Part shown: piece by piece, positions 15,001 to 64,000 of the stretch
How positions within the stretch are numbered: position 1 is the first letter of the stretch
Layout of the letters: every line of letters starts with the position of its first letter
Position numbers: made by a program
Assembly (NCBI GenBank): GCA_963667725.2
Contig: CAXXHO010000005.1
Span: 384,001-448,000, forward strand
Direction of reading: 5' to 3'
From: Treponemataceae bacterium
Lineage (GTDB): Bacteria; Spirochaetota; Spirochaetia; Treponematales; Rectinemataceae
DNA length: 64,000 bases

Positions 15001-18000
15001 AGTAAGTTCCCGGCAAGGGAACTCAAAGAAGCTGTATGAGAGGAGAAGGTGTCCACCTTATTCCTGATTCTTTTCTGTCTAGACAGGTGGGCTCATTATA
15101 TACGGTGCATTTCTACCGGAATGTGTTCACCAATGTCCCAAGTACCAAAGTGAAAGATGTGGCAGCGATGCTCAAGGCGATCCATGCCCAGGAAGACCGT
15201 CAGGCGGCCCTGGAGAAGGCGCAGGCCGTAGCAGAGAAGCTCAAAGCCATGAAATTGCATACCGCAGCCAAGACTCTTGAAGAGGGTATTCTGGAGACCT
15301 TGAGCTATACTGAATTCCCCCGTGAACATTGGCGAAAACTGAGGACCAACAATCCAATGGAACGGATCATGCGGGAGATCCGTCGTCGTACCCGGGTGGT
15401 TGGCAACTTCCCGGATGGTAATTCTGCGCTTATGCTGGTGACCTCTAGGTTGCGCTACATTGCTGGTCGTCAGTGGGGTACACGGTGCTATATGAATATG
15501 GAACTTTTATTCAAAGGAGAAATCGGCTACCAGATAATCGAGGCATAGACGGGAACTGGATGAGGGCTTCCCGATAAATGTGCGAAAGAATGTTGACGCT
15601 ACCTTTTTTAATTTACCAATATTTTCACCCAATTCAAGAAACACCAGATCACTTTCTTTTGATATATACCCTTTATAATAGTATTCGCCATTCTTATTAA
15701 GCTTTACGGAATGGACCCTTCCTTCTTTTAGATATGGTCCAGCAATATCTACACTTAACTTTGATGTATCTACTCCAATAGTATCAATAATCTTCCCGGT
15801 TAACGTAAAATTATTTTTTGAACAACTAGTAATTACTAAGCATATAAGTAATAGAATCCAATTTCTCATGTGCTCTCCAAAGCAAAACAAAAATATTTTC
15901 AATGTTTTTCTATAAACCTAACATTGGCTTAACCTTTAAATCCGCGCCTGAGCTGGCGTTGTACAGTGCGCGGTATAGAAAATCTTGCTAATACTCTATA
16001 AATAATAGAGTTATACGATTGCAGTCGAAAATCTTTTATACCGCAACAGGATCTCTTGCTACTGTAGCAAGAACTTTCTTTGGTAATTCAATAGTTAAGC
16101 GCTTGAAAATGTCCTTCGCCTCGTCGGAAATATCAGAGCAATACCAGAGGCTTACATTGTCGCTCTCAATAAGCCCTGCAGTAACATCGGACAGAACTTT
16201 TTCAATCTGGTACCACGACCGGTCCGCCATATTCTCTGCATACCGTACCAGCACCATGGCAAGCCAGCAAATAAGAATATGGCTTCGAATACGATCATCA
16301 AGTCGGTGGTATATGGGACGAATATCCAAGGTGTTTTTCATATCCTTGAATACCCGCTCTATGGCCCAGAGCTGCTTATAGCCGGCAACAATATCGGCAG
16401 CATCCAGCTTCATGCTGGACGTCGACACTAGAAACTTGCCATCAAGGAGTTCCTCTGAGGCTATCTTGGCGGTGTCGAGGTGCAAGACACCCTTCGTATC
16501 CTGCCTAATGTATCTGCCATAGGCGGAATGAGAGCGTAGCGCACACGCCGCTTTCGTGTGTGCTTTCCCCGTATACTGCGACAGTTCATCAAGCTTGCGC
16601 TTCGTAGCATCGACGATTTGTTCGCGTATGACATGGTCGCGCGTTTCGGCTTCCGGATTCTTGACGATGATGAATCGGCGCTCCGTGGCTTTCCCTGCAT
16701 CGAGGACGACATCTTTAATCGCGAGGCCACTTTCCAGGATCCTGAATCGCCCTTTCCGGTGTAGGGCTTCTACCGCGGCGCCATCGGTACCAACGCGGAG
16801 CTTTTCGCCGATGATATAGTCACCGCATTCCCGTAAAAGGATTCTTCTGTTGTCGGCACTATTGAATCCTGCATCTTGGACCATGACGACATGACCAAGA
16901 TTCCACTGTCCTAGATCACCTTTCACCTGCTCGACGATCGTCTGGTCGCTCGTGTTGCCCGGGAATACCCAGCAGCGAATAGGAATGCCGCTACGCGTCA
17001 CCGCAAAGGCAATCGAAACCAACGGTAGCTCGGGGTGTCCATCTTTACTGTGGCCACGTTTTAAAAGCCCTGAACCGGAAGCATCTTCGTCGGTCTCGAA
17101 ATAGGTGTTCGTCGTATCAAGAAAGATAAGATCCACATCAAGGTGGGCATTCTTTGATACTTCGGTAAATATGTGCTTCTGGAGTTCTTCGCTCGACTCC
17201 ACAAGAAGATCCATCGCCCGGTAAAGATTGTGAACATCGACGTTCACAAGATCCCTGATATATGCTTTCTTTGAAACCCAGTGTTCAAGAGAAAGCTTCG
17301 AACCCGGAGCCAGGATCCTGCCTGCAACCATGGCAAAGCAGAGCCGTTCGACGGGTGTGGCGAACTGGCGTTCGTTAAGAAGCCCTTTGATAGCCTTTGC
17401 CATGCCAAGACGATTCCATAGGGCATCTAGAAGCCAGGTGCCCCCAAGCTCCCGACTTGAATGGAAGTCAAATCCGGCGGGGACTTCAGAAGGATATTCG
17501 CCTAAGACCGCAGACAGTGCCTTGATGATCGCCTGGATGTAGGAAGGCTCGATCTGATCTTCCCGTCCGAGCTTCATAAGGACATTGGTTTTGGTCTTTC
17601 CTGTTTCCTTGACGCGGTAGTTGTGCACAAGTTGAAGGTACGTATAGGTACCGCCTTGAGCATTCTTTAGGGTACATTTCCGTACGTTCATTATACCGCT
17701 AATTATACAACATAGTGTTTTATCTGTAAAGTTTTATTTCGAATATTTATAAATATCTTATACCGCATTTGCATCATGCTTTTTGTACAGTCCGTTTTTA
17801 GTTATTTGTTGTCAGTATAATATATTAAGCTGCTTTATTGCTTACTGTATTATACCACACGCTGTACAACGTCAGTTAAGGGTCAAGCCAATGTTATGCG
17901 GACGCTTCGCGCAAGTATACTTGAAATTATACTTGACAATAGACGTAAGTAAATGTACTATTCATAGCATAGGAGAATGCTTATGCCGCAAATATCACTC

Positions 18001-63000: not shown

Positions 63001-64000
63001 CCTAATAGAAATTTTAGAATTATAGATATCACAACCTAATCCAAGATTTTTAACCATATTATGAATTCCATTGAATGCAATTAAGTCTTTTATCTTTGGT
63101 CCAATTCCGATAGCTTTTATTGGCAAAATACTTTTATTAATCGATATATACGGAATTATTAATCCATCCTTATTTTTATACTTAATATTTACATATTTTT
63201 TATCAGGAACTATACAAACTCTATATTCTGACTCGATAGAGTGAAAACTCTCTTTCATATTTAACATAATTGTTAGTAGAAAAAACCTATACTTTTTTAA
63301 ATACTCTAGAGCTTCATTAAGCTTTGAATATTTTATTCCAATTACAATTATCTGTGTTATTAAATTTATGTATTGCTTTAAAATATCAATTTGTACTTCT
63401 TTATTATATATTACTTTTCCTAAAAATACAGAATACTTTATAATTCCATCTTCCTCTTTTTGCTTATCAAGAGCAAGTAGGTTATTTAAGAAGCAATCTA
63501 TTAATGTATCAACTTGAAATTCAATAGAATATCCATCATTTTTTCCGTAATAATTCCATAAATGTAGACTATCTTTATCTAATGATGTAGAAAAAATAAA
63601 TAGTCTATCTGACAAGTAATCTATATATTTGCAAATATCTTCAATAAATGATTCTCTGATAATTTTATTAGATTTTTCATCTAAAGGAAACTTAGTCGCT
63701 TCTAAAATTTCAAAGAATAATCCTTTTGAATATTCAATCTCATTTGGATCATTCAAATATTTTAAATTTGATAATTGTAATGAATTTGATGATACTATGC
63801 CTAATAAACCATTTGCTGAAGAATAATGAAAAACGCTGTCGGACCCAGATACTGTGATCTCATCTCTATCTGGTAAAGCATCTAGCTTTTCAAGGACATC
63901 ACTAAACTCATTTTTCACAATTTCTACCTTTATAAGAATTAGATGAACCTAACATTGGCTTAACCTTTAACGCTCGTTCCCGAGCGTAGCGAGGGATTGG

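Follow-up and report, generated by a model that had tools for sequence, protein, structure and literature searches.

The window analysed here, a stretch of 64,000 nts from a Treponemataceae bacterium, is part of contig CAXXHO010000005.1 (C5), its position 1 being contig position 384,001; C3 designates another contig of the same assembly. A cassette array with one attC about every 790 bp occupies 24046..64000 (+) and continues past the window as far as intI (contig position 550.9 kb). Its + strand is the bottom strand of the attC sites; cassette ORFs are encoded on the − strand. In the whole genome, a profile search detected 268 non-overlapping attC matches, 253 of them near full length, with a median spacing of 634–675 bp. 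Three integron integrase genes were found (TIGR02249, 447–462 bits, cut-off 265), each adjoining the end of an attC array. The longest ORF ran opposite to the profile strand in 175/215 cassettes; on C5 this was the case for 123/152, with 13 on the other strand and 16 without ORF. The host array appears to be a very large 'inverted-integrase' chromosomal integron. GC skew, which is weak and dominated by the cassette strand bias, gave no usable replication direction.

The AAC and GTT cores were invariant in 32 aligned attC sites. The predicted DNA fold of attC comprises an R/L stem with bulged bases in the 3′ arm of the + strand, and a small inner hairpin whose two sides covary (CCTGAG..AAGG in 155 and CCCGAG..AGGG in 28 of the 253 sites).

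Within and near this array lie copies of an insertion sequence (IS) for which the genome-wide survey's note had claimed ten full copies of about 1.93 kb, a 551-aa transposase and membership of the IS1634 family of DDE elements. All of this held. Ten full-length copies were retrieved by blastn (93.1–100% identity to the query copy), each exactly 1923 bp long with ends CTGGCGTTGTACAG...CTGTACAACGYCAG and an undamaged 551-aa ORF. The transposase scored 348.3 bits against the NCBIfam equivalog model NF033559 (cut-off 100; profile positions 2–481 of 483 covered) and 48.8 bits against Pfam DDE_Tnp_1 (cut-off 23). It matched the IS1634 family and, at lower strength, IS4 and IS701; all three are of DDE type, and no other family was matched. 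The family table, in the available part of the source, gives a length of 1500–2000 bp, ends C-----YT and a duplication of 5–6 bp (PMC2266710). The 1923-bp element agrees in size, ends (its start CTGGCGTT fits C-----YT) and duplication, which is an exact 5 bp in 7/10 copies, matches at 4/5 bases in one and is lacking in two. The element is thus an IS1634-family DDE insertion sequence. Since all ten ORFs are intact and two sets of three copies are identical in sequence, it is probably active. Neither solo ends nor miniature derivatives were present in the genome, where the end motifs number exactly 20 for the 10 copies.

A single spot within attC

Six of the ten copies abutted attC sequences, all at positions 32–36 of the 122-nt attC profile. 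The target is the 5 bp CTGAG, or its variants CCGAG and TTGAG, 25–26 nt inside the R′ core, just past the R′/L′ arm and on the 5′ side of the small conserved inner hairpin. In the predicted bottom-strand fold, this spot falls 4–5 nt beyond the point where the main stem stops, at a three-way junction. Because cassette ORFs oppose the profile strand, on the cassette strand the IS is located immediately after CGCTTCGCTCAG. Its distance to the GTT of R′ on that strand is 30–31 nt, duplication included, in agreement with the approximately 30 nt before the R′ box stated in the survey's note.

Four of the six copies were two-sided, with both attC halves and a 5-bp duplication. These are C5:418362 and C5:458066 (each CTGAG/CTGAG in IS orientation), C5:432330 (CTCGG/CTCGG in IS orientation, the IS being reversed, hence CCGAG in attC sense) and C3:522342 (TTGAG/CTGAG in IS orientation). 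In every two-sided case all attC bases were kept and the 5-bp repeat was direct. The two others were one-sided: C5:399953 has an attC half only to its left, with CTGAG as the last bases, and C5:406028 has one only to its right, with CTGAG as the first. The idea of six simple insertions at one attC point was therefore correct for the position, shared by all six, and too simple for the events: only four junctions are two-sided, and 5 to 7 transpositions are to be counted (see below). The reversed copy at C5:432330 bears out that insertion occurs in either orientation; the orientation bias of the element (6:1) was not significant.

Two of the two-sided insertions lie in the window in full. IS copy 3 (34362..36284, +), a mosaic of variants G1 and G2, is a simple attC insertion in which CTGAG is duplicated. 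Its left attC half (34327..34361, +) ends with the first copy of the duplication, its right half (36285..36374, +) starts with the second, and the arms of the two halves are complementary. IS copy 5 (48330..50252, −), of variant G2, sits at the same attC position in the opposite orientation, with CCGAG duplicated at the end of the left half (48294..48329, +) and at the start of the right half (50253..50343, +), again with complementary arms.

Right next to the duplication the attC sites used differ in sequence, with GCGC, GTTC or GGGC at one edge and CGAAGC or CAACTG at the opposite edge. Spacing from the R′ core and R′-L′ arm is constant (25–26 nt), whereas spacing from features of the other side is variable. 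Other IS elements are also present in the arrays and, where they lie within these attC sites, they occupy other positions.

The four remaining copies, none of them in attC, carried the duplications TAAAG, ATCAG, TTGAA and ATCAA. These had been given as 4–5 bp at unrelated sites; all are exactly 5 bp, and one of the copies (C5:424238; IS copy 4, 40238..42160, −, variant G2, duplication ATCAG in IS orientation) is located within the array, in a cassette. As a post hoc observation, given no weight in the argument, the motif GCGAAGCGA occurs 31 nt from the non-attC site C5:733354; there are 119 occurrences of it outside attC matches.

The strong evidence comes from one genome assembly, older runs having given short contigs that break at repeats. 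Contigs of X1 and X2 matched the IS with few differences, the flanks being little covered (X1) or uncovered (X2), and apparent skips of ∼1.93–2.0 kb in contigs of X18, X1 and X2 proved to be other, intact attC sites.

Separate insertions and recombination between copies

Five distinct left and five distinct right junctions were observed, with sequences diverging from 1–12 nt of the IS onwards. Since they differ so close to the element, the junctions stem, as had been proposed, from separate transpositions and not from copying, and we estimate 5 to 7 such events for the attC insertions. Flanking cassettes were different at every attC insertion. BLAST comparison of the 1.5-kb flanks with each other gave attC-sized matches only, the longest of 184 bp, plus one of 384 bp (74%) that is a relic of another IS; a segmental duplication of an attC::IS junction was ruled out on this basis. 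Gene conversion between attC repeats was likewise ruled out by the divergence at 1–12 nt and by the one reversed copy. All five C5 attC insertion sites are confined to the third of the array most distant from intI, so local hopping contributes to their distribution.

The copies nevertheless have a history of recombination. Some are mosaics with single clean breakpoints and without private differences, which demonstrates recombination between IS copies. In the array's far end region, an attC half (15918..15952, +; profile 2–36, from a partial nhmmer match and the sequence itself) ends in CTGAG and abuts the left end of IS copy 1 (15953..17875, +; 1923 bp, variant G1), whose transposase gene occupies 16036..17691 (−) with a promoter-like site at 17730–17702. 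The right flank of this copy does not match the attC half and lacks a duplication. It consists of the inverted first ∼24 nt of another attC (17876..17899, −), and is thus an attC junction at another, non-canonical position. IS copy 2 (22028..23950, −) is identical to copy 1. Its right end abuts an attC half starting with CTGAG (21937..22027, −; profile 32–121), and the flank of its left end is cassette DNA without duplication.

Between these two inverted copies lies an inverted stretch of 4.2 kb (17876..22027, no strand assigned), delimited by attC strands and flank logic. It contains three attC profile matches on the − strand, the attC fragment 17876–17899 and a vapBC cassette (NCBIfam). One of the three matches is the half 21937–22027 and another is split by a second IS1634-family element. 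Four inverted attC matches and IS copies at a rearranged far end had been noted before; the profile search placed the former at 396.8–406 kb of the contig, and the latter bound the inverted stretch. IS–IS recombination inverted this part of the array. The attC arms do not match between the left half at copy 1 and the right half at copy 2, and the C3 copy combines TTGAG versus CTGAG with mismatched arms; in all, two or three pairs of junctions have a hybrid appearance.

Target preference and candidate attractors

A weight matrix for the target was built from 64 non-attC half-sites of the element and its relatives. The resulting consensus, H-T-S-A-R, is weak, with T at position 2 in 53/64 and A at position 4 in 47/64 half-sites. 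With this weighting, 191 attC target positions represent 0.073% of the insertion probability genome-wide and 0.50% within the C5 array. Yet 5/9 events genome-wide (P 2.6e-14 against the expected 0.073%) and 4/6 of the in-array events (P 9e-9) occurred at the attC spot. Repeated, independent insertion at one position of a repeated target is therefore found far above expectation. Chance is excluded as the cause of the shared attC position, the element's own target consensus being allowed for, and the element prefers one attC point strongly but not exclusively. Within attC, unused sites score higher on the consensus (5.2 and 3.8) than the used spot (3.0); these better pentamers lie in the paired arms. 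Mimicry of attC by the IS ends was ruled out: on both strands, the first 25 nt matched attC no better than shuffled sequences, 32% of 1000 shuffles scoring as high for the left end and 78% for the right.

Relatives gave one further clear case, new here. In L047, a metagenome contig whose transposase is 77% identical (aa), the right flank matches the attC profile from position 32 on, from its first base (E 3e-9), so that this relative has the identical attC junction. A weaker case is L036/L037 (85%), where the left flank (E 0.063) resembles an R′-L′ arm whose AAC is 26 nt away from the IS. These are the one strong and one weak case among 60 distinct flanks, 55 of which had no attC similarity. 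Loci with attC matches amounted to 10/62, the IS being mostly in cassettes or 22–42 nt outside attC; L087 showed an attC junction at another position. L054 (93%), with its IS beside the long hairpin's base in another type of attC and GATAA on both sides, was not counted because the other flank is not the matching arm. Among 68 other genomes of the family, full-length relatives numbered only two (88% and 77% identical), neither in an attC, and the attC::IS junction was found in 0/400 other genomes of the phylum, where cases may be hidden because assemblies break at such repeats.

It had been suggested that the DDE transposase recognises attC, folded or through its inner hairpin, as a preferred target. 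Of this, the strong preference for one point stands and the folded strand is disfavoured. The direct 5-bp duplications, with no attC base lost, are those of an ordinary duplex target and argue against a folded single-stranded attC substrate. Strand transfer went into duplex DNA by ordinary DDE chemistry, with staggered attack 5 bp apart.

We consider that target choice may operate in two layers. The generic and weak H-T-S-A-R consensus, common to relatives and non-attC sites, would set the exact nucleotides. An attC-specific attractor would bring the transposition complex to this place over better consensus sites, even within the same attC. Most likely, attraction would come about because the transposase itself directly reads the sequence or shape of the duplex on the L′-R′ side, since spacing from the R′ core stays fixed whereas the bases next to the duplication and the distances on the other side vary. 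This reading, an active IS1634-family IS with a strong, non-exclusive preference for the attC spot through duplex read-out, has in our judgement a little better than an even chance of being right. As the attC arms, split by 1.9 kb, can no longer pair, mobility of the cassette would be lost.

The same observations can be approached from the state of attC in the cell. Stalled forks, clamps or gaps at hairpins or cruciforms might draw the transposase, for instance via the sliding clamp, and CTGAG, the sole H-T-S-A-R pentamer in the unpaired inner stretch, would then set the nucleotide. Such a replication- or structure-linked attractor deserves some weight, though well short of even. It would account for an insertion spot at the predicted three-way junction, 4–5 nt past the main stem, for the neglect of better pentamers in the paired arms, for the lack of conservation next to the duplication, and for L054, inserted at another pentamer beside the base of a long hairpin. 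The covariation of the small hairpin suggests that the attC fold matters to the cell, and the orientation bias, not significant as it is, points the same way. According to the available part of one report, IS1634-family transposases bind the β sliding clamp, stronger binding leading to more transposition (PMC4549789); by eye, however, no obvious Q-L-x-L-F-type motif was present in the C-terminus of this transposase. The use of duplex DNA for strand transfer, the other positions taken by other IS elements in these attC sites and a GC skew that gave no replication direction also speak against it.

An attC-bound protein, the integron integrase or another attC-binding host factor, might alternatively guide the transposase, in a manner recalling the reliance of res-site and dif-site hunters on sites of recombinases. 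This we hold to be quite improbable. The genome has three intI genes, and the distance that remains constant is that to the R′/L′ arm, where IntI binds, with the other side variable and orientation biased, if not significantly. IntI, however, binds the folded single strand whereas the insertions went into duplex, and the IS-bearing attC sites on C5 are all at least 90 kb from intI. A DDE precedent exists in the IS1202 family, with fixed distance and orientation at a tyrosine-recombinase site in the part of the report at hand (PMC10132070). Steering of a DDE transposase to a fixed distance from the R′/L′ arm, by integron machinery or by a folded or stalled-fork state of attC, would make the element an 'attC hunter'; taken as a whole, we regard this bolder proposal as rather unlikely. 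Least probable, and very much so, is that there is no intrinsic preference at all, one or two chance insertions having been multiplied by recombination, gene conversion or misassembly, or retained by selection for a dispensable array. IS copies clearly recombine, the two or three hybrid-like pairs have mismatched arms, attC repeats offer 35–90 bp of homology and other IS elements are tolerated in arrays. But divergence on both sides within 1–12 nt is too near the IS for homology-driven copying, one insertion is inverted and each has different cassettes around it. Single-nucleotide precision (the spot represents 0.09% of array positions) is more than selection for harmless locations can give, and the junction recurs, with a 77% relative, on an independent metagenome contig.

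Recombination at attC sites is structure-specific, and the elements so far described as homing to them use non-DDE chemistries, namely those of RNA-guided DEDD recombinases and of group II introns. With a nucleotide-precise preference inside attC, a cut-and-paste element of the classical DDE kind would widen the range of integron parasites. It would also offer a simple system for the finding of hairpin repeats by a DDE transposase, with one protein, a 122-nt target and natural variants. Read-out of a simple local sequence would be a neat but incremental addition to target-specific IS elements; were the bolder proposal true, no earlier DDE transposon would be known that recognises a recombination site of integrons, and the element would be a natural brake on cassette mobility and driver of array inversion in giant chromosomal integrons. 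The case also illustrates how an IS can tie adjoining cassettes to each other and, in chromosomal arrays of very large size, furnish the homology that inversions need. Experiments in Vibrio cholerae, with other IS elements, showed that inversions of this kind matter, according to the accessible part of that study (PMC11023631).

Comparison with other target-specific elements

In the literature searched, no DDE element targeting attC was found and, as the survey's note had stated, the habit was described only for IS1111-attC elements and group IIC-attC introns. The former (for example ISKpn4 and ISPst6; IS110/IS1111 family) use one specific place in cassette attC sites, in the portions available of three reports (PMC11187229, PMC3971601, PMC12444791). 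The IS1634 element resembles them as an insertion sequence at one attC place. It differs by its DDE_Tnp_1 transposase, terminal inverted repeats and 5-bp duplications, by a target 25–26 nt inside R′ and by its use of non-attC sites as well. In place of a DEDD (IS110/IS1111-type) transposase with a guide-RNA region, only DDE families were matched, and the 5-bp duplications fit DDE. Group IIC-attC introns home to attC and can alter downstream cassette expression, as far as the available text of two sources goes (PMC8876359; PMC3001079). They are made of a ribozyme and a reverse transcriptase, whereas the element here encodes a DDE transposase only, as its single ORF; no Rfam family reached the gathering score anywhere in the window.

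With ordinary IS1634-family elements it shares the equivalog model, size, ends and 5-bp duplication. Among the matches listed, and in the parts of the literature available, no target-site specificity was described for this family; its reported duplications are 5–6 bp AT-rich tracts in the section of the source at hand (PMC2266710). The IS1202 family (ISAjo2, ISAba71), found at dif/pdif sites, duplicates 5 bp on insertion and lies 5 bp away from dif on its XerC side, again from a partial source (PMC10132070). It has in common with the IS1634 element the DDE type, the 5-bp duplication and a fixed distance to a tyrosine-recombinase site. It is distinguished, to the extent that this source describes it, by a TnsB-like transposase and ends, a XerC/XerD target and insertion 5 bp outside the binding site; unlike it, the element here inserts inside attC, where the arm bound by the recombinase gives way to the variable part.

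Other DDE elements insert in REP/BIME sequences. For IS1397 and ISKpn1 (IS3 family) the transposase is said to set specificity, and ISRm22 (IS4) is reported in REPs in 10/10 copies, both in the available part of one paper (PMC1525189). Their target is a REP and not a site-specific recombination site, and their families differ from IS1634. By analogy of behaviour and not by membership, they would be the closest model of how the IS1634 element works, being, as this partial account has it, DDE elements whose insertions take one fixed place in short repeats able to form hairpins.

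The element and its insertions at the attC spot

Using the copy at window 15953-17875 as blastn query against the whole genome (4.2 Mb, 8 contigs), we obtained ten full-length copies of the insertion sequence (IS), 93.1-100% identical. The window covers contig C5 from 384001 to 448000 and contains five of these copies, starting at window positions 15953, 22028, 34362, 40238 and 48330. When anchored on the terminal motifs (CTGGCGTTGTACAG...CTGTACAACGYCAG), all ten are exactly 1923 bp long, and all carry an intact 551-aa ORF. The genome-wide survey's note had described an IS1634-family DDE element with a 551-aa transposase. 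This assignment holds, since the protein scores 348 bits against the NCBIfam IS1634-family equivalog model (cut-off 100) and also matches Pfam DDE_Tnp_1. IS size, end type and duplication length all agree with the excerpted family description (PMC2266710). No solo ends or miniature derivatives were found in the genome, where the 20 end motifs are those of the ten copies. The two main sequence variants of the IS, G1 and G2, share positions 1-1070 without any difference, and all 91 sites that distinguish them fall in 1071-1920, a region which encodes the transposase N-terminal ~220 aa and includes the right end. Among the attC-borne copies, three are G1/G2 mosaics with clean breakpoints and no private differences, a pattern indicative of recent recombination or gene conversion among IS copies. 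The transposase gene is preceded by a good promoter-like site, with no terminator-like site downstream on the same strand, and transcription running from the IS into the next cassette is possible.

An iterated nhmmer profile (122 nt) applied to all contigs gave 268 non-overlapping attC matches, 253 of them near full length: 170 on contig C5 (396.8-550.0 kb), 38 on C1, 34 on C7 and 26 on C3. Three integron-integrase genes exceed the TIGR02249 cut-off (447-462 bits vs 265). Each is located at one array end and directed into the array, the arrangement called 'inverted' in Treponema. Relative to the attC profile, most cassette ORFs are on the opposite strand (C5, 123/152; C1, 28/34; C7, 24/29). 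Folded with DNA parameters, the attC + strand is predicted to form the classical R/L stem, whose 3' arm has bulged bases, and, beyond it, a three-way junction that bears one small (GCCT-GAGCGAAGCGA-AGGC) and one long hairpin. The ORF strand and the position of the bulges identify the + strand as the bottom strand of attC. The small inner hairpin (profile positions 30-48, e.g. window 43793-43811) covaries among the 253 sites, with CCTGAG..AAGG in 155, CCCGAG..AGGG in 28 and no hairpin in 34. These attC sites are unusually uniform, and the hairpin is a structural feature maintained in them.

The note's claim that six of the ten copies occupy the same attC position, in either orientation, was confirmed: attC is broken at profile positions 32-36 in all six, one of which is in the opposite orientation. 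Simple insertions with both attC halves present are found at C5:418362 and C5:458066 (outside the window), with CTGAG duplicated, and at C5:432330, in the opposite orientation, with CCGAG duplicated. The copy at C3:522342 carries TTGAG on one flank and CTGAG on the other. At C5:399953, an attC half with terminal CTGAG is present on the left side only, and at C5:406028 a half with initial CTGAG on the right side only. The other four copies do lie at unrelated sites, one inside a cassette of the same array, and their duplications are all of exactly 5 bp (TAAAG, ATCAG, TTGAA, ATCAA) instead of the 4-5 bp reported previously. All five C5 IS-bearing attC sites fall within the third of the array farthest from intI (~54 of 170 attC matches), a clustering suggestive of local hopping or of an array part that is older and quieter. 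None was found among the 72 sites of the C1 and C7 arrays.

Independent events and a rearranged array end

When the 1.5-kb IS flanks were compared with each other by BLAST, the longest match was at most 184 bp (attC size), with one exception of 384 bp (74%), the relic of a different IS. Five left and five right junctions are distinct, with divergence starting 1-12 nt from the IS. The bases preceding the target vary (GCGC, GTTC or GGGC), as do those after it (CGAAGCGAAGGA, CGAAGCGAAGAA, CAACTGCGAAGG or CGAAGGCTTAGC), and one attC insertion is inverted relative to the others. Since homology-driven copying cannot put crossovers so close to the junction, at least five transpositions are required, in agreement with the separate insertion events proposed earlier. 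The left-half arm of 399953 (AAATCC type) is unpaired with the right-half arm of 406028 (GGGCGTT...GGGTCGAAGC type), and the C3 attC halves are likewise not complementary. From their sequences, these junctions look like hybrids produced by recombination between IS copies in different attC sites, a process backed by the clean breakpoints of the G1/G2 mosaics; the event count would then rise to up to seven.

Between the inverted IS copies at window 15953 and 22028 we found three - strand attC profile matches, a short attC fragment and a vapBC-type toxin-antitoxin cassette (17977-18611; VapC NF047863, 144 bits, cut-off 140). This stretch is an IS-bounded inversion, which bears out the rearranged, inverted array end with IS copies noted in the survey. 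The second partner of the rearrangement shows no duplication (GACAA vs TTAAG), implying further deletion or rearrangement there.

Many IS elements are packed into the far end of the array. A second IS1634-family element (window 18654-20359, - strand, ORF 18677-20329; NF033559, 282 bits; 1707 bp, three genome copies) encodes a 550-aa transposase with 20% identity to the first, to which it is unrelated. This element interrupts an inverted attC around profile positions 88-92, and the duplicated bases are approximately GACTA. Thus, the attC sites here house two different IS1634-family elements, each at a position of its own. At window 45408-46695 and 13813-15100 lies an IS3-family element of 1288 bp with ORFs of 100 and 278 aa (five genome copies). 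One copy interrupts an attC in the L'' box, with GTT duplicated, and another an IS256-family transposase gene (halves 13011-13817 and 15036-15548). An IS30-family transposase gene lies at 11651-12631. A XerA/IntI-like tyrosine recombinase gene (25687-26571, + strand, 294 aa), between two attC sites and on the strand opposite to cassette ORFs, scores below the cut-offs of NF040815 (211 bits vs 220) and TIGR02249 (175 bits); it looks like a gene carried as a cassette.

Preference beyond the target consensus and its possible basis

The target consensus was derived from 64 half-sites: 60 distinct flanks of relatives (from 70; 15 species-genome and 66 metagenome-contig loci), minus four attC-like ones, plus eight from the four non-attC copies. 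It is weak but clear, H-T-S-A-R, with T at position 2 in 53/64 and A at position 4 in 47/64; G follows the duplication in 21/32. CTGAG fits it, scoring at percentile 98.7 among all positions in the genome. Together, the 191 attC target positions hold 0.073% of the consensus-weighted probability genome-wide (0.0045% unweighted). On this weighted basis, at least five of nine events at the attC target have P = 2.6e-14, and even two of six P = 8e-6. Within the C5 array, the attC target share is 0.50%, and four of six in-array events give P = 9e-9. Better pentamers in the same attC are unused (TTGAA at 105 and TAGAA at 118 score 5.2 and 3.8, CTGAG 3.0). The consensus alone is therefore insufficient, and something besides the pentamer attracts the IS to this attC stretch. 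The same-spot observation is real and statistically robust, and within this genome the element's preference is strong. The absence of any intrinsic preference is unlikely, given both the junction differences and these statistics.

In every two-sided attC insertion no attC base is lost and a direct 5-bp repeat flanks the IS, showing insertion into duplex DNA by classical DDE chemistry. A one-strand hairpin could not yield such products, which argues against the folded attC, proposed earlier as the recognised form, at least as strand-transfer substrate. Target choice would instead have two layers: an attC-specific attractor would lead the complex to the stretch past the R'/L' arm, where the sole H-T-S-A-R pentamer would set the exact nucleotide. 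This would explain the use of one position with CTGAG, CCGAG, TTGAG and perhaps TAAAG. The spot keeps a constant distance of 25-26 nt from AAC of the R' core (30-31 nt with the duplication included). On its other side, the distance to the conserved TTGGCG is variable (11 nt vs 5 nt at C3), as are the target-adjacent bases, and we therefore place the determinant on the L'-R' side.

We favour a transposase that would read the attC duplex directly, by analogy with the REP-seeking IS1397 and ISKpn1, for which excerpts of PMC1525189 report direct duplex read-out. The attractor could otherwise be a replication-fork- or structure-linked state of attC, as the spot lies at the predicted three-way junction and IS1634-family transposases are reported, in the excerpts of PMC4549789, to bind the sliding clamp. 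IntI or another attC-binding protein might also guide the transposase, with the dif-seeking IS1202 family as a precedent (PMC10132070, in part). End mimicry was rejected by comparison of the IS ends with attC. A GCGAAGCGA motif resembling the one in the attC inner hairpin is found 31 nt away from the non-attC insertion at C5:733354 (C5:735277-735340, outside the window); with 119 occurrences of this motif outside attC matches, this may be coincidental (~1% for four sites).

Relatives and known site-seeking elements

At metagenome locus L047, a relative (77% protein identity, 1913 bp) in the majority orientation has a right flank matching the attC profile from position 32, beginning at the first base (E 3e-9). 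As judged by this match, one independent metagenome contig echoes the attC-spot preference. The L047 attC half is itself cut, in the long-hairpin loop, by another element's end (…AAATGAGCGCTTAC), which also adjoins an IS relative at L048 (L047:300-380, L048:1330-1360). At L036/L037 (85%), the left flank resembles the R'-L' arm, with the IS 26 nt from AAC and then a cassette ORF; the attC match is weak (E 0.063), with no further attC in 1140 nt beyond. With L047 and L036 included, the transposase gene is co-directional with the cassettes in six insertions at the canonical spot and opposite in one, which is not significant.

Among the relatives' 60 distinct flanks, 55 lack attC similarity. With a covariance model trained on 32 attC sites of the window, attC was found in 10 of 62 relatives' loci, mostly with the IS in a cassette, or outside attC by 22 nt (L033) or 42 nt (L071). 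At one locus (L087), and also on the right side of window copy 1, the IS contacts attC at other positions, coincidentally consensus pentamers. Only two full-length relatives occur within the host family, among 68 other genomes, and the attC::IS junction pattern in none of 400 further genomes from the phylum; this absence is weak evidence, since short-read assemblies break at such repeat-repeat junctions.

In the literature searched, available in part (including PMC3971601, PMC4889954, PMC11023631, PMC9137128, PMC8876359 and PMC12444791), attC targeting is ascribed solely to the IS1111-attC group and group IIC-attC introns, consistent with the survey's note, and no link between attC and IS1634 was found. 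The IS1111-attC group uses an RNA-guided DEDD transposase to target attC (PMC11187229, in part). The present IS has the defining features of neither group and works most like the REP-seeking and dif-seeking DDE elements. It joins two known kinds, target-seeking insertion sequences and attC-site parasites.
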